DNA of 64,000 nucleotides from an uncultured Bacilli bacterium (GTDB lineage Bacteria; Bacillota_I; Bacilli_A; RFN20; CAG-288), in NCBI GenBank assembly GCA_944332485.1, contig CALVKB010000001.1:22924-86923 (forward strand), given 5' to 3'. The translations under genes and the position numbers were made by a program. The notes beneath the pieces were generated by a model. It was not told the origin of the DNA. It ran no database searches and saw only the letters and a list, made by a program, of their open reading frames with translations. Below, in pieces: positions 9,479 to 47,943 of the stretch (within the stretch, counting starts at the first letter, position 1; every line of letters starts with the position of its first letter).

Positions 9479-11056
9479 ATGATTTATGTGATATTAGGCC
9501 AAACTGCTTCAGGGAAAACTTCTTTAGCTTTGAAACTTGCTAGAGAATTCAATTTGCCATTGATAAATTGTGATGCTTTTCAGTGTTACAAGCAGATGAA
9601 TATCGGAACTGCCAAACCAAAAAAAGAAGAACTTGAAAATGTTGAACATTATTTTATCAATAACGTTGATATAACCGATGCCATCAATGTTAAAAAATTT
9701 CAAGAACAAGGTAGACAACTTATAGATAAACTTACAAAAGAAAATAAAGACATCATCATTTCAGGTGGTACAAGTTTATATATTAGAGCTCTGTTATTCA
9801 ATTATGAATTCCCTGATATTGATAACAAAATATACGATGAATTATCTTTATACCCGTTAGATGAACTTTTAAAAATTTTGGAAGAACTCGATATTGAAAC
9901 ATACAATAACATCGACAAAAACAATAAAAGAAGAGTCGTAACAGCTGTCGCTTTGGCAAAAAATAATTTTTCAAGAGATGATCTTGTGAAAAAATTCAAC
10001 AATAAACCTTTATATCCTTGTTTGTTTTTCAATATTGATGTTGATAAAGAGGATATCAATGAAAAAATTGACTTAAGAGTTGAGACGATGTTTGTTGAAA
10101 ACTTAGTAAATGAAATTGAATATTTGATACAAAATTACGACTACAACAAACTCAACGCTTTTAAAGCCATCGGCTACAAAGAGTTCTTAAATTATATCAA
10201 TGAAGATAAAACAATCGATAAAAGTAAACTTGAACAAATCAAACAAGATATCAAAACACACACTCATCAATATGCTAAAAGACAAAGAACTTTTATAAAA
10301 ACTCAATTTTCCAATGTGAAAAATTTATCACCAGAAATGATATATTCTCGTATTATGATCGATCAAAGTATCAAACAAAGAACTAAATTGATGCTTGATC
10401 AAAAAATATTGAGCCAAATAGAAAATATGCATTTTTTAGTCTGTGGTCTTGGAGGTGTTGGTAGTTTGATACCTGAATATTTAGTAAGATTAGGTGCAAA
10501 AAACATCGATATTTTGGATTTTGACAAAGTTGATTTAACTAATCTAAACCGACAGATAAGTTACAATCTTGATGATGTTGGAAAAGATAAAATAGATGTT
10601 ATAAGTGAAAAACTTGCAAAGATAAATCCTTCAGTTAATATAACTTCACTGAAGATGAAATTAGATAAGTTTAATATGATAGACAAACAGTATGATTTTA
10701 TCTTCGATTGTATTGATTCAATTGAGGGAAAAGCATATTTAACTAAATATTCAATCGATAATAACATCCCAATTATTATAAGTGGCGGTGCTGGTAAAAA
10801 AATAGATTCCACCAAGACAAAAATTGAAAAGATAACAAAATCAAATGACGTTTTGATAAAAAAATATCTTGAATATTTAAAACCTATATTAACAAAAGAT
10901 GATCATCTAAATTCAATATATTGTGTTTGTTCGAATGATACAAATATCAAAACAAAAAATAAAACAATATCTTCAATCCCAACTGTCCCTAACAGTTTCG
11001 GTTTGGCCATGATATCATTTTTACTAAAGAGAATTGTAGGAGGTTTTAATATATGA
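9479..11056 (+). CDS. miaA: Fusion: tRNA dimethylallyltransferase MiaA (N) + TcdA/CsdL-type tRNA threonylcarbamoyladenosine dehydratase (ThiF/E1 fold, C)
   Basis: N-terminus has P-loop GQTASGKTSLA and YAKRQRTF (MiaA). From about residue 300: LVCGLGGVGS...DFDKVDLTNLNRQ...SGGAGKKIDSTK...CVCSND, matching E. coli TcdA (VVGIGGVGS..DMDDVCVTNTNRQ..TGGAGGQIDPT..CVFSTE). Confidence 0.8.
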   Translation: MIYVILGQTASGKTSLALKLAREFNLPLINCDAFQCYKQMNIGTAKPKKEELENVEHYFINNVDITDAINVKKFQEQGRQLIDKLTKENKDIIISGGTSLYIRALLFNYEFPDIDNKIYDELSLYPLDELLKILEELDIETYNNIDKNNKRRVVTAVALAKNNFSRDDLVKKFNNKPLYPCLFFNIDVDKEDINEKIDLRVETMFVENLVNEIEYLIQNYDYNKLNAFKAIGYKEFLNYINEDKTIDKSKLEQIKQDIKTHTHQYAKRQRTFIKTQFSNVKNLSPEMIYSRIMIDQSIKQRTKLMLDQKILSQIENMHFLVCGLGGVGSLIPEYLVRLGAKNIDILDFDKVDLTNLNRQISYNLDDVGKDKIDVISEKLAKINPSVNITSLKMKLDKFNMIDKQYDFIFDCIDSIEGKAYLTKYSIDNNIPIIISGGAGKKIDSTKTKIEKITKSNDVLIKKYLEYLKPILTKDDHLNSIYCVCSNDTNIKTKNKTISSIPTVPNSFGLAMISFLLKRIVGGFNI

Positions 11057-33096: not shown

Positions 33097-35955
33097 TTAA
33101 ATAATCTTATATGATAATGGTTCAACTTCAGTTGGAACACCATTAACAGTAGGAGTGATTGTCTTATCTGAAAAGTTCATCAAAACATAGTAAGTCTTGT
33201 TTGTTGAAGGATCTTTTGTTGAGAAGCAAATAGACTTCAAATACTCCTCTTTGGTCAAGCCTAAAGAATTCATAGCAGTATTCGAACTATCAACGAAGAA
33301 ATCCATATTCGCATACATCTCATCGAAACTTGAATAACTAGGAAGATTGGAACGAAGTTGTAATTGATCAAATATTTTCATCTGTGAGTAATTTTCTGCT
33401 AATAAACTCCAGTCGATAGCATTAACTTCAACTCCAGTGTTGTATGAATTATGGACAAATGTTCTTTCAACATCGTTGATGATAGATTTGGTCGAATTAG
33501 AAATGACTGTTTGGTCACTCATAAAACGTTCGTTATCTGTTATCTCTTTGCTACGGAAGAACTCCTGTCCTGCTTGGATGAATGAAATACCATTTGTGAA
33601 CATGGTCAAAGCGTTCGATATCTCAGAAAGCTTCTTAGCGATACTCTCATCTTTAGCAGTTATCAAATATTTATCGTAAACTGTCAAATTATCATGACAT
33701 TCGACATAATTAACACTTGCTAACATATTACTTGTTGAATATGGAGTATAAACTTTATTTCCTAATAAGAAGTTTCTGCTTGGATTGCTATTTGTAATTC
33801 CAAAGATGATTTTGTCACGAAGATCGATGAAATTAGAAACTGAAACAGCATCTGTCATATCAAATCCTTCATAGGAATATTGAGCAAAACCTTTATCTTC
33901 TGCGTTGAAAACATTTCCTTTCACGGCATCTCTGAAAGCATCATTGAAAGCTCCAACATAGGAATTTGGATCACTTATTCTACTAAGATTTCCCTGAGTT
34001 GCCATTATGTAATTTTGCTCAGGAAGTTGATCTTCATTACCTTTATAATCGAACATCTCCCAACCTTCACCATAGATCAAAGCGTTAGGATTGATCTGAT
34101 GAACTTTTGAACTCACCATCTCCATGGTATCCAAATCGATAAGTCCCATCAAATCAAAACGGAAACCTTGAACACCGTAGTGAGAAACATAATGACATGT
34201 TGAATCAGCTATGTATCTTGCAAACATACTTCTTGTTGCATTCATATCACTACCAGCTCCAGAACCGTTTGATGTTCTAAAGTAATAATCAGGAACTATG
34301 TTATCGAAATTGGAATTAGTCTTGGATGGAATATGATTATAAACAACATCCATAGTGACACCTAAGCCATCGCTGTTGTAGGTTGTAACAACCTCTTTAA
34401 ATTCATCGATTCTTGCTAATGGATCCTCTTTATTATATGCGTAGCTTCCTTCCAATGAATTATAGTTGTAAGGATCATAACCCCAGTTGTAACCACCATT
34501 ACTAGTAGCGTTCATATATTCATCGCTTGTGTCTGTTTCATCAACAGATTTGAAATCATAAACAGGCATCAATTGAACGTGGGTTAAACCTTTTTCTTTC
34601 AATTCAAGTAAGTAGTTATAACCTATTGACTGTTTTTCAGAATTTTCTTTGTTGTAAAAAGCTGTTTTATCAATCAAAGCTTTGAATGTACCTTTATATT
34701 GTGGATTTTCAGTTTCAAAAGTATCTGATGAGCTGAAATCCTTAACGTGCATCTCATAAATTGTTGGTTTTGCTGAACTTATACTATTGGAAGTTTCAAC
34801 TTGTTGAGTAGTTAAAGCATGCTTTGTAAAGTCAACAACAACGCCATCAGTGGCATTCAATGTTACAGAATATGCATAAGGATCAACGATATTTGTTTTT
34901 GTTTCCCCATAGTTGGTGACTGAATAATGGTATAAACTACCATCATAAGCATCAGTTGTAACTTCATAGCATCCTTTGTTGACAGTAGATTTAGTCATTT
35001 GCAATTCTCTGTAGGTCTGTTCTGTTGGATTCTTGATGTACAATTTTACATCAGTTGCAATTGGTGCCCATAATCTGAAAGTTACTTCATTCAAATTTTC
35101 TGTAAAAATCGCGCCCAACTTAACGTCATCAGTTGGAGTATACATGTCTTCAAAAGTTTGAGATGAATAAAACTTCTGCATCGATAATGGAAGAATCAAC
35201 TCTTCGTTATTCTCATCTGTGTAAATTACTTCATATTTCTTCGTGATGTCCAAATAGTCAGTAGGTAAGATTGTTGTGGTGCTGAACTCATCGACAATCT
35301 TTTCAATTTCAACATTTGTTTTTGAAGTGACTTCTCTTATTTGTAAATCATCTTTAGTCAATTTCAAACTGGTGTCATTTTTATAAACTCTAACACCTTT
35401 ATTTGTTTGATTATTGCTGGTATATCCGTAATTTGCACCGTATAATTTGATACTTTGTATATCTTCTGGTGAGTAATAAACTTCGCCATCAACATAATAA
35501 ATATCACCATTGAACAATGTTGTATCCAAAATAAGATCATTAGTTTGAGTACCACCATCGCTTGTTCTTAAAATAAAACCTCTTGTTGGAGTGACAAAAT
35601 CCTCTCTTGAGATTGACTTAATAACACTTTCTGTGCTTCCGCCCCAGTCACTATACAAAGTATATTCAGTATCAAAAGAAAAACCAATTTTTGAGAAGGT
35701 TATATCGCAATCAGCTACTGTGACATCCTCTTCAATTGCCATATTTTTGAAAAGAACGCTCGAATTATCAACCTCATCATCCCAAGTCCAAATTGCGTCA
35801 AATACACTGTTATCTTTGGTGTAATAGTAAATGTTAACATCATAACCATCACTTGGTGTTGGAGTGCTACTGGTTGTTTGTTCTCCTTTAGAGCAGCTAG
35901 TCAACATTGTAGTTGCTAATAAAGGGAACATAAGTAATTTTGTAATTTTCTTCAT
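33097..35955 (-). CDS. pulA: Pullulanase (type I, GH13_14) lipoprotein, secreted or surface
   Basis: Signal peptide with lipobox LTSC. YNWGYDP, GFRFDLMG (region II), YGEGWEM (region III), YVECHDN (region IV). Confidence 0.9.
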   Translation of the reverse strand: MKKITKLLMFPLLATTMLTSCSKGEQTTSSTPTPSDGYDVNIYYYTKDNSVFDAIWTWDDEVDNSSVLFKNMAIEEDVTVADCDITFSKIGFSFDTEYTLYSDWGGSTESVIKSISREDFVTPTRGFILRTSDGGTQTNDLILDTTLFNGDIYYVDGEVYYSPEDIQSIKLYGANYGYTSNNQTNKGVRVYKNDTSLKLTKDDLQIREVTSKTNVEIEKIVDEFSTTTILPTDYLDITKKYEVIYTDENNEELILPLSMQKFYSSQTFEDMYTPTDDVKLGAIFTENLNEVTFRLWAPIATDVKLYIKNPTEQTYRELQMTKSTVNKGCYEVTTDAYDGSLYHYSVTNYGETKTNIVDPYAYSVTLNATDGVVVDFTKHALTTQQVETSNSISSAKPTIYEMHVKDFSSSDTFETENPQYKGTFKALIDKTAFYNKENSEKQSIGYNYLLELKEKGLTHVQLMPVYDFKSVDETDTSDEYMNATSNGGYNWGYDPYNYNSLEGSYAYNKEDPLARIDEFKEVVTTYNSDGLGVTMDVVYNHIPSKTNSNFDNIVPDYYFRTSNGSGAGSDMNATRSMFARYIADSTCHYVSHYGVQGFRFDLMGLIDLDTMEMVSSKVHQINPNALIYGEGWEMFDYKGNEDQLPEQNYIMATQGNLSRISDPNSYVGAFNDAFRDAVKGNVFNAEDKGFAQYSYEGFDMTDAVSVSNFIDLRDKIIFGITNSNPSRNFLLGNKVYTPYSTSNMLASVNYVECHDNLTVYDKYLITAKDESIAKKLSEISNALTMFTNGISFIQAGQEFFRSKEITDNERFMSDQTVISNSTKSIINDVERTFVHNSYNTGVEVNAIDWSLLAENYSQMKIFDQLQLRSNLPSYSSFDEMYANMDFFVDSSNTAMNSLGLTKEEYLKSICFSTKDPSTNKTYYVLMNFSDKTITPTVNGVPTEVEPLSYKII

Positions 35956-37078: not shown

Positions 37079-37657
37079 ATGTCAAAGAAAATTTTAGTTG
37101 AGACAAGTGCAAGACACGTTCATGTTACAAAAGATACATTGAAAAAATTATTCGGTGAAAATGCTACTCTTGAAGTTAAAAAGTATTTAAGTCAACCAGG
37201 ACAATTTGCTTCAAATAGCAAAGTTGATATTGTCGGTCCTAAAAACACTATCAAGAATGTTTCAATATTAGGTCCAGAAAGAAGTGCTGATCAAGTTGAG
37301 ATGAGTTTAACCGATTGTAGAACTCTTGGAATCGATGCTCCAATAAGAGAATCCGGTGATATCAAAGATTCAGCAAAATGCAAAATTGTCGGCCCATGTG
37401 GTGAAGTTGAATTAAACGAAGGTTTGATCGTTGCAAAAAGACACATCCATATGACTGAGGATGATGCCAAACAATTCAAAGTTAAAAATGGCGACATCGT
37501 CAAAGTCGAAATTCAATCTCCACGTGAGAGAAGTGCCATTTTAAATGATGTTGTAGTCAGAGTTTCAAATTCATATGCTCTTGCTATGCACATCGATACT
37601 GATGAATCAAATTCCTTAGGCTTACAAGGTAACGCCGAAGGCACAATTGTCAAATAA
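37079..37657 (+). CDS. pduL: PduL-type phosphate acyl(propanoyl/acetyl)transferase
   Basis: Two PduL repeats with SARHVHV and AKRHIHM motifs; 192 aa. Confidence 0.85.
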   Translation: MSKKILVETSARHVHVTKDTLKKLFGENATLEVKKYLSQPGQFASNSKVDIVGPKNTIKNVSILGPERSADQVEMSLTDCRTLGIDAPIRESGDIKDSAKCKIVGPCGEVELNEGLIVAKRHIHMTEDDAKQFKVKNGDIVKVEIQSPRERSAILNDVVVRVSNSYALAMHIDTDESNSLGLQGNAEGTIVK

Positions 37658-37667
37658 ATAAGAACGT

Positions 37668-40052
37668 TTATTGTATTTTTTCAAATATTGAAGATAAGGG
37701 AGTTACAACAAATTCTCTATCTTCAATTTTTAATTTAAGTGATTTATTTGAAAAATTGAAACTTGATAAATATTCATTATTATCATCTTTCAAAATGTAG
37801 TTTACAGAATTTAAATAATCCTGTTTTGACAATCCAAATCTACCTTTTTTATCAAAACTCACATTCTCTTTCATCATCTTTATGTTAGGATAAACTGGCA
37901 TTTCGTTTTTTCTGTATGATAAGTATTTTTTGAATTGCTCAACGTACTCTTTGTATTTTGTGACATTATCCCAGTTGATAGCGTTGAGAATAACACCTGA
38001 TGCATATGAATTATGACAAAACACTCTTTTTGTTTCATCGATATTCAAAATGTATGATTGCGATAATGTAAATTCATCCTCAAGATATCTATTTTTCTCA
38101 TTTTCAGGTAAAGCAGTTACTTCCTTAGTTCTGAAAAATTCCTGACCGATTTGGTAAAAACTTATACCATTTGACAATAAAACTAAATTTGTACATAAGC
38201 TTGCAATCTTTCTTGCAATATTCTCATCATGTAAAGTTATGACAAGTTTATCAAACAAAGGGAGATTATCATGACATTCAACATAATTAACGGAGTTGAA
38301 GATATTATGTTCAGAATATGGTATGTAATTTTTGCATGAGATAAGTTCTTTTTTATTTGGATTACTATTCATAATTCCAAATACAATATCATCATGCATC
38401 TGTTTGATTAACTTAACTTCTTTTTTATAGTAACCTTTATAAACTTTCTGACAATATCCATCAACTTTACAATCGAAAACATGGCCTTTCATACCATCAC
38501 GGAATGTGTCGTTGAAAGCTCCAACACAACTATTTGTTGAATCCAAAAAATGCAAATTTTTCTGAATTGCCATCAAATAATCGTTACTTTCATCAAGCTG
38601 ATGAATATTTCCATTCGCATCAAACATATCCCAAGCTTCACCATAAATCAATGAATTTTTATTGATCTTATGAACTTTATCAGATAATTCTCTCATCGCT
38701 TGTAAATCAAGCAATCCCATCAAATCAAAACGGAATCCGGACATTCCGTAATTTTCAGTGAACATACAGCATGAATCGATGATGTATTTTTTGAACATCT
38801 TTCTTGTTGTATTCATATCCGCTCCAGCTTTTGAGGTACTTGATAAACGGAAGTAATAATCAGGTGCGAGCATCTCAAATTTGGAATCCAACTGACTTGG
38901 AACATGGTTGAAAACAACATCCATGATCACACCGACATTTATACTTGCGTATTCTTTTATTACACTTATCATCTCTTTTATTCTGCACAAAGGATCATTT
39001 GGGTTGGAACTGTAATGTGCTTCCAAACAATTGTAATTTAAAGGACCATAACCCCAATTGTAATTGTTGTGGGAAGTTTTCAAGATAAAATCCTTATCAA
39101 AATTATTCTCATGAGCACTTAAAAATTGATAAAAAGGCAATATTTGAATATGTGTCAAACCTTTTTCGCTCAATTCTTTCATGTAATCAAAACCGACTTT
39201 ATCACCATAGGAATTTTTGACATTTTTTTCAATTAATCCAAGATATTTTCCTTTAACTTCAGTATTCTTAGTTATGAAAGTATCAGACATTGAGAAGTCT
39301 TTAACATGAATTTCACAAACGACAGGTTTTGTTGTATAAAAGGATTTAATGTGTTCGAGTGTTTTATTATCTATTTTATGTTTATTCCAATCGATGAAAA
39401 CACCTAATGTTCCATTTTCCAAACACGAGTAACAGTAAGGATCAACCACATTTTCATATGTGATTCCAAAATTTGTTACAGTGAATGTGTATATGCTTAA
39501 ATCTTTAACTTCATTCAAAACAACTTCATAACAACCGTTATTTTGATAATTCATCTTATATTGCTTGAATTCATCATTTATATCGGTTTTCAAATTAAGT
39601 TTTACTTCAGTTGCAAAAGGTGCAAAAACTCTGAAATAGGTCTTGTTATTTTCATTGAAACTTCCAAGTTTATAATCCATATCAGGGGTGTATAAACTGT
39701 TAAATTCTTCAGAGGAATAATATTTATCAAAATATAATCTAGAGCGATATTTTTGATTTCCTGACTCGATTTCAAGAGTGTAAATTTTTCTAATATCCAA
39801 TTTGAAATCGATCAAAACTTCATAATATTCTTTGTGTTTTTTAATGTAATTAAGTTCCTTCACTTCAGAGGTTGAACATAGATGAATCTTATCGATATTC
39901 TTCAAATTTAGCTTAGTGTAAATTCTAATTGAGTTACAATCAACCTCAGAATGTTTGTAACCAAAAACACAATAAAAATCACTTTTTTCACGTTTTATTT
40001 GCACGTTTTTAACTTCATCCTGAATAACAGTTTCGACCTCTTTAAATTCCAT
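37668..40052 (-). CDS. Pullulanase paralogue (type I, GH13), no signal peptide, probably cytoplasmic
   Basis: YNWGYGP, GFRFDLMG, YGEAWDMF, YVECHDN. Preferred start MEFKEV at 40052 after AAGGTGG; the ORF track extends to 40106. Confidence 0.85.
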   Translation of the reverse strand: MEFKEVETVIQDEVKNVQIKREKSDFYCVFGYKHSEVDCNSIRIYTKLNLKNIDKIHLCSTSEVKELNYIKKHKEYYEVLIDFKLDIRKIYTLEIESGNQKYRSRLYFDKYYSSEEFNSLYTPDMDYKLGSFNENNKTYFRVFAPFATEVKLNLKTDINDEFKQYKMNYQNNGCYEVVLNEVKDLSIYTFTVTNFGITYENVVDPYCYSCLENGTLGVFIDWNKHKIDNKTLEHIKSFYTTKPVVCEIHVKDFSMSDTFITKNTEVKGKYLGLIEKNVKNSYGDKVGFDYMKELSEKGLTHIQILPFYQFLSAHENNFDKDFILKTSHNNYNWGYGPLNYNCLEAHYSSNPNDPLCRIKEMISVIKEYASINVGVIMDVVFNHVPSQLDSKFEMLAPDYYFRLSSTSKAGADMNTTRKMFKKYIIDSCCMFTENYGMSGFRFDLMGLLDLQAMRELSDKVHKINKNSLIYGEAWDMFDANGNIHQLDESNDYLMAIQKNLHFLDSTNSCVGAFNDTFRDGMKGHVFDCKVDGYCQKVYKGYYKKEVKLIKQMHDDIVFGIMNSNPNKKELISCKNYIPYSEHNIFNSVNYVECHDNLPLFDKLVITLHDENIARKIASLCTNLVLLSNGISFYQIGQEFFRTKEVTALPENEKNRYLEDEFTLSQSYILNIDETKRVFCHNSYASGVILNAINWDNVTKYKEYVEQFKKYLSYRKNEMPVYPNIKMMKENVSFDKKGRFGLSKQDYLNSVNYILKDDNNEYLSSFNFSNKSLKLKIEDREFVVTPLSSIFEKIQ

Positions 40053-40337
40053 AATTTCAACCACCTTTATAATACAATGATAAATATATATTTTTATTTT
40101 ATTCAATTCAATATTTTTATTTTTGAAATATTAATAAATTGTTAATTTGCTTTGTAATAGGTATCATAATTGAAAAAGCAATTTATTTACACTATATAAA
40201 AGTTGCTTTATAATTTTTACTCTATTCTTTATGTTATACAAAAACAACAAAAAACGTAAAAAATTTCTTCATAAATTAAAGTTGAAAATAATATTATTTT
40301 TATTTATATTTTATATGGTTATAAGGGAGTTTTAAGT

Positions 40338-41834
40338 ATGCCAAAATTTCATTTTTTAGCAACAGATGGTATGACTAAAATCGACGGTCATAAATATCCG
40401 CATTGTGACACTCCGATAATCAAATACGATCCTGATAAGGTCTACATTCAAGCAGTAGATAACAAAGGTCTTCCTCTTAGTGAGATGGTCAAAGTTAATG
40501 ATACTGTTTGTGTTGGTACAGTGTTAGGAATACGTAACGATTTCAATTTACCCGTTTACTCTTCAGTGAGTGGTAAAGTTGTCGCAATCGAAAAGAAAAC
40601 CTCCACAACAGTCGGAAGGTTAGTCGATCATTTTGTCATCGAGAATGACAAAAAATACACAAAAGTAAACTTGCCAAAACTTACTTCCAGAACTAAGGAA
40701 GCAGTGGTAGATTTACTCAAGAAAGGAAGCATCGTCGGTTTAGGTGGTGCCGGTTTCCCAACGTTCATCAAATACAATGTGAAACCTGGAACTGTCATTG
40801 ACACAATCTTAGTCAATGCGGTTGAATGTGAACCATATTTAACAACCGATTATGTGGAAGGTGCTAGAAGTGTCAACGATATGTTCTACGCTTTACCAAT
40901 TTTGATGGAAATCGTAGAAGCAAAACAAGCTATCATCGCTTGTAAAGAGAATAAAAAACACCTTATTGATGCAATCAAGAACGCTATCAATGAGCACAAG
41001 GAAGTCAATGCAAAATTGGTTTTAGTTAAAGACCGTTACCCGATGGGTTTTGAAAGAACACTCATCCGTGAAGTCTTAAAAAGAGAATATGAAGTTCTTC
41101 CAAGTGAATGCCACGTTATCGAAAACAACATTCAGACACTGGAAGCTGCTGGAAGACTTTTCAGAGATGGTGAAGTTATCACCAGACGTGTTATCACCAT
41201 CGCTGGTGAAGCTGTCGCAACACCAAACAACTATGATGTTCCAGTTGGAACCATGTTAAATGACATAGTTGTTAATAACGGTGGTTACAGCTGTGAGGAA
41301 GTCAAGGTTATCAATGGTGGTCCGATGTGTGGTAAAGCTGTCTTGACAACCGAAATACCAGTTTTACTTCAAACCGGTGGTTTCACAATCTTACATAGAT
41401 ATGACATCAAAGCTGAACCATGTTGGAAATGTGGTGCTTGCGTTGATCACTGTCCTATGGGATTACAGCCAGTGCAAATTCAGATGGCTATCAATAGAGG
41501 AGATGTCGAGCGTTGCCACGATCTCCAAGTTGAAAAATGTGTTGAATGTGGATTATGTTCATTTGTCTGTCCAAGTCATATCGATGTTTCCGCAAATGTC
41601 AGCAAAGCTAAATTGATGGCAAGGTTGAAATTCAAACCTGGTGTCAAATCACAAAAAGAAGAACAACGTGAGAAGATAAAAGCTTCACTTCAAAAATTCA
41701 AAGATCTCTTCAAAAAGAAAACTCCAGAGGAGAAAAAACTTATTGAAGAGAAGAAAAAAGAAGCAAAAGAAGCAAAACTTAGATCAAAACAACAAAAGCA
41801 AGAAGTTAAACAAACAGAAAAGGAGGGTAACTAA
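40338..41834 (+). CDS. rnfC: Rnf electron-transport complex subunit C
   Basis: GLGGAGFPT NADH/FMN site; two 4Fe-4S motifs CWKCGACVDHCP and CVECGLCSFVCP; Lys/Glu-rich C-terminal tail. Confidence 0.93.
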   Translation: MPKFHFLATDGMTKIDGHKYPHCDTPIIKYDPDKVYIQAVDNKGLPLSEMVKVNDTVCVGTVLGIRNDFNLPVYSSVSGKVVAIEKKTSTTVGRLVDHFVIENDKKYTKVNLPKLTSRTKEAVVDLLKKGSIVGLGGAGFPTFIKYNVKPGTVIDTILVNAVECEPYLTTDYVEGARSVNDMFYALPILMEIVEAKQAIIACKENKKHLIDAIKNAINEHKEVNAKLVLVKDRYPMGFERTLIREVLKREYEVLPSECHVIENNIQTLEAAGRLFRDGEVITRRVITIAGEAVATPNNYDVPVGTMLNDIVVNNGGYSCEEVKVINGGPMCGKAVLTTEIPVLLQTGGFTILHRYDIKAEPCWKCGACVDHCPMGLQPVQIQMAINRGDVERCHDLQVEKCVECGLCSFVCPSHIDVSANVSKAKLMARLKFKPGVKSQKEEQREKIKASLQKFKDLFKKKTPEEKKLIEEKKKEAKEAKLRSKQQKQEVKQTEKEGN

Positions 41835-41836
41835 CT

Positions 41837-43702
41837 ATGGTCAAAACTGCAATTCAAAATTCACCCCATCTCAGAGGTAAAAACTCGACCTTCAAGATGA
41901 TGATGGAATTTTTGATCGTCGTTAGCATTCTTTGGGTTTGTTCAATTATCTACTATTTTGTAGGTGATTTTGCAAATTATTACAGTGTCCAATACGGTCT
42001 TAAAGCCATCGGAATGGGTGTAAGCTGTGTTTTATTCGCATTTATAACCGATGCTATTTTCTATCTTCCTATCTTTTGGAAAGATGAGAAACGTCTCAAA
42101 CTTGCCAAAGGTGAAACAAGAGTTAAAAGTTACTTTAAGAAGTTGATTTTCAACTATTCTTACGTAACAGGTTTGTTGATTGCATTATTATTCCCAATCG
42201 GTACTCCTGTTTATGTATTATTTGTCTGTACTTTCATCTCCGTTTTCATCTTCAAAAATCTCTTCGGAGGTTTTGGAGCCAACATCTTCAATCCAGCTAT
42301 CATAGGAAGAGTTATCGGACAGATAGCATTTGCTGGCCAATTGAAAACATATCTTGGTGAAAATGCACCTACCTCTGAATTTTTAAACAGCGGTGCTTCC
42401 TTGACAAGCCAATTTGCTGGTACATCAAATTCAATCGGATATGGATTTAGCCAAATTTCAACTTTGAATCTTTTCATAGGAAATTATGTTGGAACCTTAG
42501 GTGAAACATTCGCTATTGTCATAATCATTCTCGCTGTTTATTTGATGGTTAGAAAAATCATCGACTGGAGAGTTGTACTTTCATTTGTTGTCACTTTCTA
42601 TTTGACATATTTCTTGATCAATCTCTGTTCTGGTAAAGGTGTGAATTCATTTGAGAATGCCTTTAGACAATTATGTGTCGGCGGTGCTTTGTTCGGTGCA
42701 GTATTTTGTTTAACAGACCCTGTTACAAGCCCAGTCAACAGAACCGGTAAGATAATCTTTGCAACAGGTAGTGCTTTGATTACTATCGTTATTAGAATTT
42801 TCGCATCTGCTCCTGAAGGAATGGCTTATTCAATCCTTGTTATGAATATGCTCGTCCCGATGATCGATTACTTCACAAGTGAAAGAACAAATAAACACAT
42901 GTGGAAAAAATACACCGCAATCTCAATCATCCCTGCTGCAAGTATCATATTAGGTTGTTCCTATGGTGGTGTTAATTATGTAGCTCCTGTCAAACCAGTT
43001 ACTCCTACAGGTGACGTGGTTTTATCAAAAATTAAAGTTTCAAATAACTATGCTGATTATGGCCATTATGAATTGAATGTCACTGTTGGTACAGATTTCA
43101 AGGTTTACCAAATTGAGATACTTACTCATTCATACACACTTGAAGATTCGTGGATTCAAGGTGGAAGTCATAGTCATGTGATGGAAACTGATTTTACAGA
43201 ATTTGTCAACACATATATTCCAACAGCTTCTAAAGCTATAAGTTTTGCAACTTACGATAATTGTTCATTAAGTGATATTAATAATATTCAAAGTAATTCA
43301 ACTGAAGCAACATATGGATTAGTTTTAGCTGTTCAAAAAGCTATCAATGAATACAAAGCTGAATATACAAAGATCACTGTCGATCATAAAGGTACACAGT
43401 ATTTCGATTCTTTCAGTGGAAATGTTTATATCAATGATGACAAAGTATATTACACTGAGATTACAGATGCTTCCATTGAAATGGATTGCACAATCGATGA
43501 ATTTTTAAATGGTGGCTCTCACACAACTGATACAAGTGTCGATTCAACTGAATTTTCAGAACGTTATATCAACCGTGGTGATGGTATTCCTTTCTCCGTT
43601 TTTGAAGGAACAAAAGTGACTGTAGCTGGTGCTACAATTACTTCCAGTGGATATATTGATTTTGTCAATGAAGCTATCCAACAATATAAAGCGAGCAAAT
43701 AG
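41837..43702 (+). CDS. rnfD: Rnf subunit D fused to about 260-aa C-terminal extension (extra TM + two repeat modules, the last with an FMN-binding-type VAGATITS motif)
   Basis: NqrB/RnfD core (about 350 aa, ends ...VMNMLVPMIDYFT), then an extra TM (AISIIPAASIILGCSYGG) and a soluble domain. That domain is paralogous to the C-terminus of the next gene (NVYINDDKVYYTEI...LNGGSHTT...VAGATITSSGYIDF). Confidence 0.85.
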   Translation: MVKTAIQNSPHLRGKNSTFKMMMEFLIVVSILWVCSIIYYFVGDFANYYSVQYGLKAIGMGVSCVLFAFITDAIFYLPIFWKDEKRLKLAKGETRVKSYFKKLIFNYSYVTGLLIALLFPIGTPVYVLFVCTFISVFIFKNLFGGFGANIFNPAIIGRVIGQIAFAGQLKTYLGENAPTSEFLNSGASLTSQFAGTSNSIGYGFSQISTLNLFIGNYVGTLGETFAIVIIILAVYLMVRKIIDWRVVLSFVVTFYLTYFLINLCSGKGVNSFENAFRQLCVGGALFGAVFCLTDPVTSPVNRTGKIIFATGSALITIVIRIFASAPEGMAYSILVMNMLVPMIDYFTSERTNKHMWKKYTAISIIPAASIILGCSYGGVNYVAPVKPVTPTGDVVLSKIKVSNNYADYGHYELNVTVGTDFKVYQIEILTHSYTLEDSWIQGGSHSHVMETDFTEFVNTYIPTASKAISFATYDNCSLSDINNIQSNSTEATYGLVLAVQKAINEYKAEYTKITVDHKGTQYFDSFSGNVYINDDKVYYTEITDASIEMDCTIDEFLNGGSHTTDTSVDSTEFSERYINRGDGIPFSVFEGTKVTVAGATITSSGYIDFVNEAIQQYKASK

Positions 43703-43713
43703 GAGGTTAATTT

Positions 43714-44820
43714 ATGTCAGAAGAATTGAAAGATAAAGTTAACAAAGAGGTTACTACCTCCCAAAATGAAGCTTCAAAAGACACTTCAAAAGAAAACAAA
43801 AAACAGAAAAAAGTGAAAAAAGCAAAAACAAAGAAACCTTTGAGCAATTTCATCTTATTCCCGATTGTTTTAGGTTCTGTATGTTTGATCTCGGCTGGTG
43901 CTATAGCTGGTATCAATTATTTAACTGAGCCAATCATCGCACGTAATGCTGAGAAAAAGTATCTCAAATCCTGTTACAAATTATTAGGTAACGAAAACAT
44001 CGACAAAACTCAAGGTACTGATGGTCTTAGTAAAGCTGATGTTCCAACAAGTGCCAGCTACATTTTGCAAGCTTACAAAGTCTTTGTCACCAGTGAATTT
44101 GCTTCAGCACATTCTGAATACTCCGATTTTTATTACTATGTCTTACAAACTCCATCCGGTTACAAAGGCAGTGTTACATTAGCTTGTATCATCGCTGGTA
44201 CATACGGAGAAGATGGCGTTTTGTATGATATGATGGCTATCGATACAACAAGTGAAGATGCACTTGGTGCCGGTCAACTTCAAAATGTGACTGTTAAACC
44301 TGGCTACACAGGTGAAGATGGTGATAATCTTTTAGATTCAGGTTACATCACCAGTGGTGCCACAGCAAAAGTCACTTTCAACGCTGTCGATACAGCTATC
44401 AAACAAGCTATCCAAGTGTTTGAAGGTAAGATTATCCCAACTATCGGTTATCAAAAAACTGAAGATGGTTATGAAATTTACTATAACGAACATAGTATTG
44501 AAAATATGACATACTCCAGTTTTACCGGATATGTCTACATCAAGGATGAGAAAGTCTACAATGTTGAAATTTTAAGTTCAACAAACACAATTGGTGCAAA
44601 AGATAACGCCTGGCTCAATGGTGGATCCTACAGTTATTACGAAGATATGTTAGATTTCACATCATTCTCCAACAAATATGTCAATGCAACTGATGGTGTG
44701 AGCTTCGATGTATTTTCAAGTGATCCAGTTTATGTTGCTGGAGCTACCCAAGCTACCGAAGGCTATGTTGAATTTATCAGAAGTACAATAGAATTGTACA
44801 ATGAACATCATAATAAATAA
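43714..44820 (+). CDS. rnfG: Rnf subunit G with additional C-terminal FMN-binding-like module (two SGAT-type motifs)
   Basis: K-rich N-tail, TM, RnfG/NqrC-like FMN_bind region with ITSGATAKVT. A second module YVYIKDEKVYNVEI...LNGGSYSY...VAGATQATEGYVEF follows. 368 aa, whereas RnfG is usually about 200. Confidence 0.8.
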   Translation: MSEELKDKVNKEVTTSQNEASKDTSKENKKQKKVKKAKTKKPLSNFILFPIVLGSVCLISAGAIAGINYLTEPIIARNAEKKYLKSCYKLLGNENIDKTQGTDGLSKADVPTSASYILQAYKVFVTSEFASAHSEYSDFYYYVLQTPSGYKGSVTLACIIAGTYGEDGVLYDMMAIDTTSEDALGAGQLQNVTVKPGYTGEDGDNLLDSGYITSGATAKVTFNAVDTAIKQAIQVFEGKIIPTIGYQKTEDGYEIYYNEHSIENMTYSSFTGYVYIKDEKVYNVEILSSTNTIGAKDNAWLNGGSYSYYEDMLDFTSFSNKYVNATDGVSFDVFSSDPVYVAGATQATEGYVEFIRSTIELYNEHHNK

Positions 44821-44831
44821 GGAGGTCGGAT

Positions 44832-45644
44832 ATGTCAGAAAATAAAATTAATACTGCTGATGTTGAAAAAAGTTCAGAAGTAGTGAACTCTGCTGAATCA
44901 ACTCAAAAAAGTGCAGTTAGTACCAAAGTTACTGATAAACCTAAAAAAGTGAAGAAACCGAATGAATTATTGAAAGTATTCACAAACGGAATCATCAAAG
45001 ATAATGCCTTGTTAGTGATGCTTCTTGGTTTATGTCCTTTATTCCCTTCAACAACCTCAATAAACAACGCTATTGGTATGTCAGTTGCTGTTTTGTTCGT
45101 TCTTTTCTTCTCGAACATCATCATCAGTTCAATACGTAAAATCGTACCAAGCAACATCCGTGTTCCTGTGTACATCGTTGTTATCGCAACATTGGTTACA
45201 ATCGTCGAATTGTTGATGAAAGCATTCACTGAGACATTGTATGAACAACTCTCAGTTTTCATATCTTTGATCGTTGTTAACTGTATCATCTTAGGAAGAG
45301 CCGAAGCCTTTGCAAGCAAAAACTCCGTTGGCAAATCAGCTTTGGATGCTTTAGGTATCTCAATTGGTTTTGCGATGGTTTTGCTTATTGTCGCCTTCTT
45401 CCGTGAAGTCATCGGTACAGGTGGAATAACATTTGTCAATCCATTCACCGGCGATACCTTATTCACATTCTTGCCACTTGCTGATTTTGCTGTTCCAGTA
45501 TTCGTTCAAAGTTTCGGTGGATTTGTCACATTCGGTTTAGTTTTGGGTGTCTTCACAACCATCACCATGTGGAACAACGACCGCAAGATGAAGAAAGAAC
45601 AAAAAGAAAAATTAGCTTTGCAACAAGCTAAAGGAGGTAAATAA
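44832..45644 (+). CDS. rnfE: Rnf subunit E
   Basis: NqrD/RnfE family LGLCPLFPSTTSINNAIGMS with six TMs. About 45-aa K/S/T-rich N-terminal extension. Confidence 0.9.
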   Translation: MSENKINTADVEKSSEVVNSAESTQKSAVSTKVTDKPKKVKKPNELLKVFTNGIIKDNALLVMLLGLCPLFPSTTSINNAIGMSVAVLFVLFFSNIIISSIRKIVPSNIRVPVYIVVIATLVTIVELLMKAFTETLYEQLSVFISLIVVNCIILGRAEAFASKNSVGKSALDALGISIGFAMVLLIVAFFREVIGTGGITFVNPFTGDTLFTFLPLADFAVPVFVQSFGGFVTFGLVLGVFTTITMWNNDRKMKKEQKEKLALQQAKGGK

Positions 45645-45646
45645 AA

Positions 45647-46252
45647 ATGGTATTTTTAACTACATTCATATCTTCCTTATTAGTTAACAACGTCATACTA
45701 AGTGGAACAAAAGGCCTTTGCTCCTACATCGGACTTTCCAAAGATAAAAAAGCAACTTTAGGTATGTCGATCGCTTTGATCGTCGTTTGTGTTTTATCAG
45801 GTTTGATCTCCTGGGGCTTAGCCGCTTTATTGACACTTATCAACGCAACTTATTTATCAACAATCGTCAGCATCCTTGTCATCGCATCATTTGTTCAACT
45901 TCTTGAGATTTTCATCAAGAAATTCCTCCCAAGTTTGTATAAATCATTGGGTATTTACTTGCCATTGATTACAACAAACTGTGTTGTTATGGGTTTGGCT
46001 ATTTCAATTTTCTCAACATACGCAAAATATATCGATGGTACTCTTAGCTCCCTTGATAGTGCTTTGACCATCCTTGGTATGATCTTAGCTTATCCATTAG
46101 GTTACTTCATGGTTATCTATGTCTTTGCTTTCATTCAAGAGAGAATTCAAAACAACAACGAAACTCCACGTGGTTTCAAAGGTGCTGCTATCGCTTTTAT
46201 CGCAACAGCTGCTATGTGTTTAGCAATTTACGGCTTCACCGGACTTGTTTAA
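45647..46252 (+). CDS. rnfA: Rnf subunit A
   Basis: NqrE/RnfA family; six TMs; 201 aa. Confidence 0.9.
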   Translation: MVFLTTFISSLLVNNVILSGTKGLCSYIGLSKDKKATLGMSIALIVVCVLSGLISWGLAALLTLINATYLSTIVSILVIASFVQLLEIFIKKFLPSLYKSLGIYLPLITTNCVVMGLAISIFSTYAKYIDGTLSSLDSALTILGMILAYPLGYFMVIYVFAFIQERIQNNNETPRGFKGAAIAFIATAAMCLAIYGFTGLV

Positions 46253-46267: not shown

Positions 46268-46588
46268 TTGCTTTATAACTCAAATTTAAACTACCTTTGG
46301 ATGGTTTTGATAGTTTTGGGGGCTGTTGGTATATTTGTAAGTTTGTATCTTATAAATAAAAAAACTAAGCCTCCAAAAGACTGTCCGAAGAACATCGTCG
46401 GTTGCCAAGGTTGCATGCTTAACTGCAATAGAAGAGAAGAGGATTTCAATGTCAGTGATTATTTAAATCCTGATTTGACGAAAGTCAGATACGTGAAAAT
46501 TGAGAAAGTTAAAAAACTTAAAAAAGAGCAGTATATGCAAGAATCAGATAAACTGATGCGTGAAATTTTAAGTCAATATAAAAAGTAA
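46268..46588 (+). CDS. Small membrane protein with CPKNIVGCQGCMLNC cysteine cluster (TTG start after AGAGG, or ATG at 46301)
   Basis: One TM then C-x6-C-x2-C-x3-C. Sits between rnfA and rnfB, where no canonical Rnf gene is expected. Confidence 0.4.
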   Translation: MLYNSNLNYLWMVLIVLGAVGIFVSLYLINKKTKPPKDCPKNIVGCQGCMLNCNRREEDFNVSDYLNPDLTKVRYVKIEKVKKLKKEQYMQESDKLMREILSQYKK

Positions 46589-46599
46589 AGGAGAATTAT

Positions 46600-46929
46600 A
46601 TGTTACCAGTTTGGGCACAGATTGTTTTAGCAATTGTTGTAGTTGTTTTATTAGGTGTTCTTTTCAGTATATTGATCGCTGTTTTTTCAAAATACTTCGC
46701 TGTTAAAGAGGACCCTCGCAAAGAGAAAGTTATGTCTTTAATTCCAGGTGTTAACTGCGGTGCTTGCGGTCATCCTGGTTGTTCTGGCTTAGTTGATGCA
46801 TTGATCAGCGGCAAAGAAACACACGTCAAACAATGTAAAGTCATCAAAGATGACAAAGCTAATGAGATCAAAAACTACCTTAATGAAACTCCCGGACCTG
46901 ATGGTCAAACTTTGAAGGTAGATTTGTAA
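46600..46929 (+). CDS. rnfB: Rnf subunit B, minimal form (N-terminal membrane anchor + single Cys-cluster domain; no ferredoxin-type domains)
   Basis: FAVKEDPRKEKVMSLIPGVNCGACGHPGCSGLVDA...C aligns with the E. coli RsxB N-terminus ([35 protein letters not shown]). Stops after 109 aa with no CxxCxxCxxxCP dicluster region. Confidence 0.8.
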   Translation: MLPVWAQIVLAIVVVVLLGVLFSILIAVFSKYFAVKEDPRKEKVMSLIPGVNCGACGHPGCSGLVDALISGKETHVKQCKVIKDDKANEIKNYLNETPGPDGQTLKVDL

Positions 46930-46948
46930 TAAACATTTATATATCGAT

Positions 46949-47419
46949 ATGAAATTAAATTCCAAAGCAAAAAAAAGATACAACTTCAATTTTCAAGATG
47001 TCATCTTTATTTTGCTTGGAATTTTTTTAGTTATAAGTTTGTTGTTGTACACATTGTTCGGTATCAATAGAAACGTCAACGAGAACTCTTTTGTTGTTAT
47101 AACTTACGCTGGTACCGAAATTTACAACAGACCTATAACTGAAGAGAAGGACCCATTGGTCATAACAAAACAGATGGGAATAACAGGAGATCCCGAAAAC
47201 AATATACTTTCAATAGGTCGTGAGTTTGATTTTGTCGGACCAACTGTTGAAGTGAGAATCGTCGATATGACAATTCAGGTTGTTCAAGAGGATTCACCAC
47301 ATAAAATCTGCTCTAACCAAGGAGTTGTGAAATACGCCAATACCCCCATCATCTGCGAACCAAATTATATACAAGTTGTCATCGTTGATTACTCAAGTGA
47401 CAAACCGGACAATATGTAA
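46949..47419 (+). CDS. Membrane-anchored NusG_II-domain-like protein
   Basis: N-terminal TM. C-terminal SPHKICSNQGVV...PIICEPNYIQVVIV resembles the CP(D/H)KICV..G.I...IVCLPN.V.I signature of NusG domain-II proteins that accompany flavin transferases. Confidence 0.5.
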   Translation: MKLNSKAKKRYNFNFQDVIFILLGIFLVISLLLYTLFGINRNVNENSFVVITYAGTEIYNRPITEEKDPLVITKQMGITGDPENNILSIGREFDFVGPTVEVRIVDMTIQVVQEDSPHKICSNQGVVKYANTPIICEPNYIQVVIVDYSSDKPDNM

Positions 47420-47421
47420 CT

Positions 47422-47943
47422 ATGAACATAGAAAGAATCGTCAGAATAAGCTTATTTGTAGCTTTATCAACAGTTATACACTTTTTTGAATCGATGATTG
47501 TTATTCCAATTCCAATACCTGGATTCAAGTTGGGATTAGCGAATATTGTCGGTGTTTTTGTACTATTTTATTATGGTTATAAAGATTATGTCGGAGTTAC
47601 TTTTTTTAGAGTTTTGTTAGTTGCTATTTTGTTCAGTGGTTTTGGAACTGGATTTTTATTAAGTTTTGCTGGTAATTTATTCGCAGTATTAATAACAACT
47701 TTGATCTACTTTTTAACACGAAGTAGCATATTCAGTGCTTCTGTTTTAGGAGCTATATTCCACTCCATTGGTCAAGTGTTGATGTACATGCTTATCTCAC
47801 AAAGTGTTTATATAATCACATATTTACCATATTTAGCTATTTTAAGTATGCTAAGTGGTTTCTTACTAGCTTTGATATGCCGTATGGTATTAATAAGAAT
47901 GCCAGAATACAAAGACACAAGTAAGATAAGAAGAAAAAGATAA
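47422..47943 (+). CDS. Gx-transporter family membrane protein ('heptaprenyl diphosphate synthase component I'-like)
   Basis: Five or six TMs with glycine-rich GFGTGFLLSFAGN. Usually partnered with NusG_II and FMN-binding or ApbE genes. Confidence 0.65.
   Translation: MNIERIVRISLFVALSTVIHFFESMIVIPIPIPGFKLGLANIVGVFVLFYYGYKDYVGVTFFRVLLVAILFSGFGTGFLLSFAGNLFAVLITTLIYFLTRSSIFSASVLGAIFHSIGQVLMYMLISQSVYIITYLPYLAILSMLSGFLLALICRMVLIRMPEYKDTSKIRRKR

Follow-up and report, generated by a model that had tools for sequence, protein, structure and literature searches.

A divergent FMN_bind-like module with a putative second flavinylation site on RnfG of an uncultured Bacilli bacterium, and its sister modules on RnfD

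The stretch of DNA analysed here, 64,000 nucleotides (nt) of contig CALVKB010000001.1 from an uncultured, gut-type Bacilli bacterium and called the window below, carries an rnf operon on its forward (+) strand in the order rnfC-D-G-E-A-(small open reading frame)-B. We focus on rnfG, which lies between rnfD and rnfE. Its product begins with a Lys-rich cytoplasmic tail and one transmembrane (TM) helix; the canonical RnfG ectodomain follows, and the C-terminus is formed by a module that resembles the FMN_bind domain (FMN, flavin mononucleotide). A preliminary description of this DNA had claimed two putative SGAT-type flavinylation sites on this one subunit, and both of the peptides that it named are present in the frame of a single + strand open reading frame (ORF) at 43714-44820. 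The SGAT of YITSGATAKVT is found at amino acids (aa) 214-217 of RnfG (nt 44353-44364) and the AGAT of VAGATQATEG at aa 342-345 (nt 44737-44748). The interval 44446-44820, where the second site was placed, corresponds to aa 245-368, that is, to the C-terminal module together with the stop codon, or the 3' third of the ORF. The features of rnfD and rnfG are as follows, with the basis of each in brackets.

41837-43702, + strand: rnfD, 621 aa, composed of a core, an extra TM helix and two modules (Pfam, hydropathy, blastp)
aa 1-355 of RnfD, + strand: canonical core, with its intrinsic site SGAS at aa 185-188, nt 42389-42400 (Pfam)
42917-42973, + strand: extra TM helix of RnfD, aa 361-379 (hydropathy scan)
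43007-43360, + strand: RnfD module m1, aa 391-508 (local profile, alignments A2 and A3)
43361-43699, + strand: RnfD module m2, aa 509-621, with the site AGATITS at nt 43625-43636 (Pfam, identity matrix, blastp)
43714-44820, + strand: rnfG, 368 aa (ORF and operon position)
43834-43923, + strand: single N-terminal TM helix of RnfG, aa 41-70 (hydropathy scan, charge count)
43930-44442, + strand: canonical RnfG ectodomain, aa 73-243, with SGAT and T217 (structure prediction, Foldseek, gene order)
44443-44817, + strand: divergent FMN_bind-like module at the C-terminus of RnfG, aa 244-368, with the putative site AGAT and T345 (profile and fold evidence)

By charge count, the tail ahead of the TM helix of RnfG contains 14 Lys or Arg residues. 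Thus the rest of the protein is predicted to be extracytosolic, which is the location expected of an ApbE substrate. In the AlphaFold2 (AF2) model a helix spans aa 46-91.

The canonical domain of this RnfG is, to judge by its sequence, very diverged. It gives no Pfam FMN_bind match at all. The TIGR01947 (rnfG) model scores 20.8 bits on the whole protein, over aa 51-159 only, and so misses its curated cut-off of 102. A profile of RnfG and its five homologs, searched against PDB sequences, retrieved nothing even at E<=10. The fold is clearer. AF2 is confident over aa 75-240, with a predicted local distance difference test (pLDDT) of about 80-95 in the canonical ectodomain, and the best Foldseek match in the PDB is the RnfG of Acetobacterium woodii (9eri_G, E 1.6e-4), with the RnfG of T. 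maritima (3dcz) also among the matches. In the model, SGAT at aa 214-217 immediately precedes a helix at aa 219-237. The identification of the canonical domain rests on this fold match, on the weak TIGR01947 match and on the gene order; the protein has the gene position, the N-terminal TM anchor, the ectodomain fold and the [ST]GA[ST] site of an RnfG. Like canonical RnfG and NqrC (7zc6_G, 9eri_G; TIGR01947), it is encoded between rnfD and rnfE, has an N-terminal TM helix and a 9eri_G-type fold, and carries SGAT before the last helix of the ectodomain. Unlike them (about 170-210 aa), it reaches 368 aa through its extra C-terminal domain. The canonical site reads SGAT, SGAS or SGVT in the RnfG orthologs and is unchanged in all 19 close variants (19/19), and FMN is expected on T217.

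The preliminary description had called for a per-domain check with the FMN_bind profile, and the outcome was unexpected: the only stretch matched is the C-terminal module, below threshold, and the canonical domain is the one left unmatched. Pfam FMN_bind (PF04205) scores 12.3 bits on the module within the whole protein and 16.5 bits on the module alone (E 0.014, profile positions 6-76 of 77). Several independent comparisons connect the module with FMN_bind domains. By blastp it is homologous to two tandem modules of RnfD, at aa 497-617 (35% identity, E 1e-21) and at aa 420-512 (31% identity). Among PDB sequences, a profile of nine such modules (A2) is matched best by the RnfG of C. tetanomorphum (7zc6_G). 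The E-value of 0.052 is marginal, and the GAT of the module falls on the flavinylated 'TGATITS' of that protein. In an exhaustive search of A2 against 1.84 billion representatives, the orthologs came first and were followed mainly by large repeat proteins. Of the ten proteins scanned from this search, eight carry multiple FMN_bind domains according to Pfam, and one of these eight is an RnfD with 15 of them; P0126, P0133 and P0136 were set aside as Ig-like or low-complexity repeat proteins.

A local iterative hidden Markov model (HMM) search among RnfD homologs converged on 30 modules in 26 proteins, and this set takes in the three canonical 'DTATGATMTT' domains of P0123. Taken singly, 15 of the 30 modules are matched by Pfam FMN_bind (best E 5e-13), and no second family recurs. 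Furthermore, hhalign aligns A2 with a profile of Pfam-verified FMN_bind domains (A5) over 79 columns with a probability of 88.7% and an E-value of 2.6e-6, and places the G-A-T of the module on S-G-A-T. The preliminary description would have given up its claim if only one domain scored as FMN_bind and the second lacked the conserved Thr context on alignment; that context is kept. An origin of the module as a duplicate of the N-terminal domain of RnfG was also considered and rejected, as blastp shows no internal repeat.

When full-length RnfG was modelled by AF2 with 6 sequences, the pLDDT of the C-terminal module stayed below 50, and the 30-module alignment was then used. With this alignment the module is predicted with a pLDDT of 91 and a predicted template modelling score (pTM) of 0.88. 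It consists of three antiparallel strands (module residues 11-17, 27-34 and 37-46), an inserted hairpin with short helices, and a long final helix (residues 102-122) that starts at the Thr, module residue 102. The model agrees with the crystal description in PMC10339131. Its top two Foldseek matches in the PDB are 8p2b_B (CbFMN4-D1) and 8p2a (SaFMN3-D2), both crystals of single domains with covalent FMN, at target TM-scores of 0.61 and 0.57, respectively, and 12-13% identity.

Some points weigh against the assignment. The 16.5 bits of the module fall short of the Pfam FMN_bind gathering cut-off of 22 bits, the Foldseek E-values are weak (0.37 for 8p2b_B and 0.94 for 8p2a), and the module shows no recognisable counterpart of the 'ETxGxG'-like segment that canonical domains have. 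One might also suspect that the GAT arose by chance in a C-terminal extension of unrelated origin, given how little three residues prove by themselves and that the domain goes uncalled by Pfam. We regard such a coincidence as very improbable, and the iterative HMM, the AF2 fold and the hhalign result effectively refute it. The positional conservation of the Thr and the enrichment of the motif speak against it as well. [STA]GA[TS] occurs six times in the 19,053 aa of the window ORFs, and four of the six occurrences sit in RnfD and RnfG; outside Rnf the motif has a background frequency of about 0.11 per 1000 aa, which would predict about 0.04 occurrences in RnfG. The motif in RnfG is therefore more than chance. 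With high confidence, we assign the C-terminal module to the FMN_bind fold as a divergent domain with T345 at the flavinylation position. The second domain claimed in the preliminary description is thus upheld by profile-profile homology, the iterative HMM, the fold with the position of the Thr, and conservation among orthologs.

The preliminary description had two sites on one subunit in view and overlooked the sister modules on the C-terminus of RnfD. Pfam NQR2_RnfD_RnfE covers aa 6-351 of RnfD. A basic stretch separates this core from the extra TM helix, and m1 and m2 follow. The C-terminus of canonical RnfD is taken to be cytoplasmic from the solved Rnf and Nqr structures. A core that ends in the cytoplasm and is followed by one more TM helix would place both modules outside the cell, beside RnfG. 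Module m2 scores 19.5 bits with Pfam FMN_bind and is the nearest paralog of the RnfG module (37-40% identity). Module m1 gives no match in the Pfam scan, and its site is degenerate: it reads SNST (nt 43292-43303), with the Thr retained and N-S in place of G-A. The single RnfD module of the P0007 lineage is 38% identical to m1, 34-35% to m2 and, at its highest, 48% to the RnfG module of P0005. Because of this pattern of identities, recent shuffling of modules between the adjacent rnfD and rnfG genes is tentatively suggested. The ratio of nonsynonymous to synonymous substitution rates (dN/dS) of m2 is 1.35, from 8 changes at a dS of 0.03, and is left without interpretation. As the module type occurs twice on RnfD, any flavin 'wire' of the kind proposed for RnfG would span two subunits.

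All five ortholog lineages retain the Thr of the RnfG module (window, AGAT; P0001, TGAT; P0004, IGAT; P0005, SGAT; P0137, TSAT), despite a sequence divergence of about 50%. Across the 30 aligned modules, conservation reaches at least 90% both for the Thr and for the Gly at position -2. By identity, the module is at least as conserved as the canonical domain, with 60% versus 46% to P0004 and 49% versus 44% to P0005. Relative to a 92%-identical strain, dN/dS is 0.41 for the module and 0.28 for the canonical domain. We infer that T345 carries covalent FMN, at somewhat better than even chances.

Several observations count against this flavinylation. T345 lies in V-Y-V-A-G-A-T. Of the motif D-x-x-[S/T]-G-A-[S/T], this site has G-A-T but neither the 'strictly conserved' Asp at -6 nor the Ser/Thr at -3. 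In addition, an Ala is found at +2 instead of Ser/Thr, a position whose hydroxyl side chain forms a hydrogen bond with flavin N3 in crystals (PMC10339131). The C-terminal G-A-T is altered in 3 of the 19 close variants, once to GAN and twice to EAT. No biochemical study of any multi-flavinylated Rnf was found in the searched literature. Also to be counted here is ApbE (PF02424), which was not found in the 64 kb window, either by regular expression or with an HMM made from the ApbE genes that Pfam confirms in related loci (best E 0.44).

The module could thus be a degenerate FMN_bind-derived domain that holds no flavin and works structurally: it might dock RnfG onto the RnfD modules, help to hold the ectodomains together or touch the cell surface, and the Thr would be a relic or a helix cap. 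We regard this as a possible but rather doubtful reading. The missing Asp (-6), Ser/Thr (-3) and Ser/Thr (+2), the GAN and EAT variants and the missing ApbE would all fit it, as would the sub-threshold Pfam scores, the SNST of m1 where xGAT would be expected, and the fast evolution of the ectodomains (dN/dS 0.24-0.41 versus 0.06 in the membrane core). It fits poorly with the retention of the Thr in every ortholog lineage and of the Thr and its Gly in the aligned modules. The altered variants (P0003, P0148 and P0152) lie on short contigs of 1.8-2.9 kb and could be sequencing errors. In flavinylation mutagenesis, the Thr is essential, the effect of Asp-to-Ala is minor, and substitutions of G or A still keep about 50% (PMC12052999). 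Moreover, neither the Asp at -6 nor the Ser/Thr at +2 is present in the canonical site of the same RnfG, Y-I-T-S-G-A-T, which must nevertheless function.

Among the 80 related loci that we compared, more than 50, within the range L005-L082, have a Pfam-confirmed ApbE gene adjoining rnf. Since canonical Rnf function itself needs ApbE, the enzyme is probably encoded elsewhere in the genome, outside the window. The missing neighbour would also fit another explanation, in which the flavin is bound to the module without a covalent link or is captured by it in free form outside the cell, the module being a scavenging or shuttle-docking domain and not a fixed redox centre. The retained FMN_bind fold and the gene just downstream of the operon for an ECF-S-like membrane protein (Hpre_diP_synt_I) are consistent with such a role, and covalent and non-covalent flavin sites are evolutionarily linked (PMC11334425). 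We consider it quite improbable: the conserved G-A-T triad points specifically to recognition by ApbE, and the canonical sites T217 of RnfG and S188 of RnfD need ApbE anyway, so the genome should encode one.

In the canonical Rnf route, electrons pass from ferredoxin to RnfB, to the [2Fe-2S] cluster of RnfA/E, to the FMN of RnfG as a mobile shuttle, to the FMN of RnfD, to riboflavin on RnfD, to RnfC and finally to NAD+ (PMC12174285). The four membrane Cys of RnfA/E and the ligands of the proximal cluster of RnfB are all present in this operon. Here, RnfG would be a two-domain extracytosolic flavoprotein anchored by one N-terminal helix, with T345 flavinylated by an ApbE encoded outside the window. 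The extra membrane helix would carry the RnfD modules to the outside, giving up to three outward-facing flavin domains on top of the two canonical covalent FMNs. These extra domains would be tethered where the two periplasmic-side FMNs meet. Their most likely role would be a side branch or relay between the RnfG/RnfD FMN pair and extracytosolic acceptors, with electrons leaving or entering, a role that has been proposed for multi-flavinylated RnfGs generally (PMC8238504). Alternatively, the extra flavin domains may act as a relay between the RnfA/E cluster and RnfD. The best explanation, in our view, is a two-domain RnfG flavoprotein with FMN at T345 that serves an electron side branch; we hold it with modest confidence, just above an even chance. 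If T345 and the RnfD sites carry FMN, the number of covalent flavins in the complex would rise from two to as many as five, of which three would sit on flexible domains that face outward, and the complex would be a natural test case for Rnf electron branching to the cell exterior.

Multi-flavinylated RnfGs encoded in RNF gene clusters have been reported previously from bioinformatic analysis, with a proposed second electron path to extracytosolic acceptors (Méheust 2021, eLife, PMC8238504). Like them, the RnfG of the window is encoded in a complete rnf operon, has more than one FMN_bind-type domain with an [S/T]GA[S/T]-like site, and is predicted to lie outside the membrane. The operational class of that study is defined by more than one Pfam FMN-binding domain in a cluster with RnfB. 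Both domains of the window RnfG lie below the Pfam FMN_bind threshold and the protein falls outside this class, while by homology and fold it has two FMN_bind-type domains. A Pfam-based survey would therefore have left it uncounted, and the divergent module shows that surveys of flavinylated proteins that apply Pfam thresholds overlook whole lineages. The module differs further from the reported ones as a distinct subfamily of about 125 aa with an inserted hairpin/helix segment that carries a conserved WxNGG, with an AGAT site that lacks the Asp, and with two further copies of this module type on RnfD.

In structure, the module model is matched best by SaFMN3 and CbFMN4 (8p2a, 8p2b; PMC10339131), which links it to these proteins and to the PplA-type flavoproteins of extracellular electron transfer (EET). 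SaFMN3 and CbFMN4 are beads-on-a-string proteins of ~85-aa domains with canonical DxxxGAT, for which full flavinylation was shown experimentally (PMC10339131). In contrast, the window RnfG has one larger, divergent copy, tethered to an Rnf subunit. The window RnfD, with its core, extra TM helix and modules, resembles RnfD-FMN_bind fusions of Erysipelotrichales and related Bacilli (Longibaculum muris, P0123, P0128), of which P0123 (719 aa) joins RnfD to 3 canonical Pfam FMN_bind domains and P0128 (1853 aa) to 15. Those fusions have canonical, Pfam-detectable domains with xGAT sites, whereas the window RnfD has divergent modules and reads SNST in m1. No discussion of RnfD-FMN_bind fusions was found in the searched literature. 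What is new here is the divergent module subfamily that fails curated thresholds, the presence of one module type on both RnfD and RnfG, and the co-occurrence of these modules with a minimal RnfB and with a small, conserved Cys-rich protein, both described below.

This RnfG is rare: its homologs form five clusters among 5.8 billion proteins, and a genome scan with RnfG found no relatives in the GTDB representative genomes. The window RnfG is identical to P0142, which is present on 10 public metagenomic contigs. Relatives of its RnfD number in the hundreds and come from uncultured Bacilli, 'Mollicutes', Erysipelotrichaceae and Leptotrichia. In the comparison of 80 loci, RnfD commonly has a C-terminal extension with additional xGA[TS] sites, and several RnfGs have two or three sites. 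Clear-cut versions are present in cultured Erysipelotrichaceae; by Pfam FMN_bind, cultured relatives have three domains in the RnfG of Holdemania massiliensis, two in the RnfG of Anaerorhabdus furcosa and two in the RnfD of Longibaculum muris. In two related metagenome-assembled genomes (MAGs), the whole RnfG ectodomain is duplicated in tandem (L012, 2661-3656, 331 aa; L013, 4106-5671, 521 aa), with SGAS twice in the former and GTS twice in the latter, which is an independent route to a two-site RnfG. Extra flavin domains on Rnf thus turn up time and again in this clade, and the form found in the window is the most diverged.

The remaining genes of the operon and the two genes behind it are the following.

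40338-41834, + strand: rnfC, NADH-binding and Fe-S subunit (Pfam RnfC_N, Complex1_51K, SLBB and Fer4)
44832-45644, + strand: rnfE (Pfam Rnf-Nqr; 184 and 131 bits for rnfE and rnfA)
45647-46252, + strand: rnfA (Pfam Rnf-Nqr, score given with rnfE)
46268-46588, + strand: small membrane-anchored four-Cys protein (CPKNIVGCQGCMLNC), between rnfA and rnfB
46600-46929, + strand: truncated rnfB, 109 aa (Pfam FeS, 38 bits)
46949-47419, + strand: protein with a NusG_II domain (Pfam)
47422-47943, + strand: Hpre_diP_synt_I / ECF-S-like membrane protein (Pfam)

RnfB consists of a TM helix and the four-Cys Fe-S domain PF04060 only, and the match to rnfB models is confined to the N-terminal half of the models (in one case positions 3-92 of 190). 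Missing is the C-terminal polyferredoxin domain, a ferredoxin-type [4Fe-4S] acceptor, which takes electrons from ferredoxin (review PMC12174285). This short form is found in every related locus in which RnfB was found (89-137 aa), including those of the cultured Holdemania, Longibaculum and Anaerorhabdus. The small protein encoded between rnfA and rnfB carries its Cys residues as C-x6-C-x2-C-x3-C and has no family match in Pfam and TIGR scans. Homologs of 60-116 aa, each with a TM helix and four Cys, are encoded at the corresponding place in 36 of the related loci, which range from Bacilli to Leptotrichia, and the protein is possibly an undescribed extra subunit of Rnf. As the minimal RnfB and the small Cys-rich protein also occur in cultured Holdemania and Longibaculum, this architecture is open to experiment.

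A more far-reaching proposal can be formulated, although we think it unlikely to be correct. The Rnf of this clade (the window lineage, RF39-like MAGs and Erysipelotrichaceae, and also Leptotrichia) would have been rebuilt as an outward-directed flavin conduit that still moves ions. It would be made up of an RnfB without its ferredoxin-accepting domain, the added four-Cys membrane protein and the extra covalent-flavin domains on RnfD and RnfG. If true, electrons would pass to or from extracellular or cell-surface acceptors, which would amount to cytochrome- and quinone-free EET in wall-reduced gut bacteria.

The genes for the NusG_II-domain protein and the ECF-S-like protein directly follow rnfB. 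The same gene order recurs in L001, L002 and L090, about 30 related loci contain homologs, and the pair is co-conserved with the operon. An involvement of this pair in flavin supply is conceivable. At the other end of the operon, the C-terminus of RnfC (aa ~440-498, window 41660-41834) is a low-complexity tail rich in Lys and Glu, and the Lys-rich N-terminal tails of RnfG and RnfE resemble it.

The window has a GC content of 32%, and Pfam scans of most of its ORFs identify the other genes as housekeeping genes, including those for MutS/MutL, formate-tetrahydrofolate ligase, FolD, ArgRS, aldolase, PNPase and MetK; this points to chromosomal DNA of a low-GC bacterium. Two large ORFs on the - strand lie upstream of the rnf operon. 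The one at 33097-35955 has a CBM_48 match only, which suggests a glycoside hydrolase of the pullulanase/isoamylase type, and the second is found at 37668-40106. Between them lies a gene for the phosphate propanoyltransferase PTAC (37079-37657). Further upstream, a single ORF at 9479-11056 combines an isopentenyl pyrophosphate (IPP) transferase domain of the MiaA type with a ThiF-family domain, an unusual fusion.

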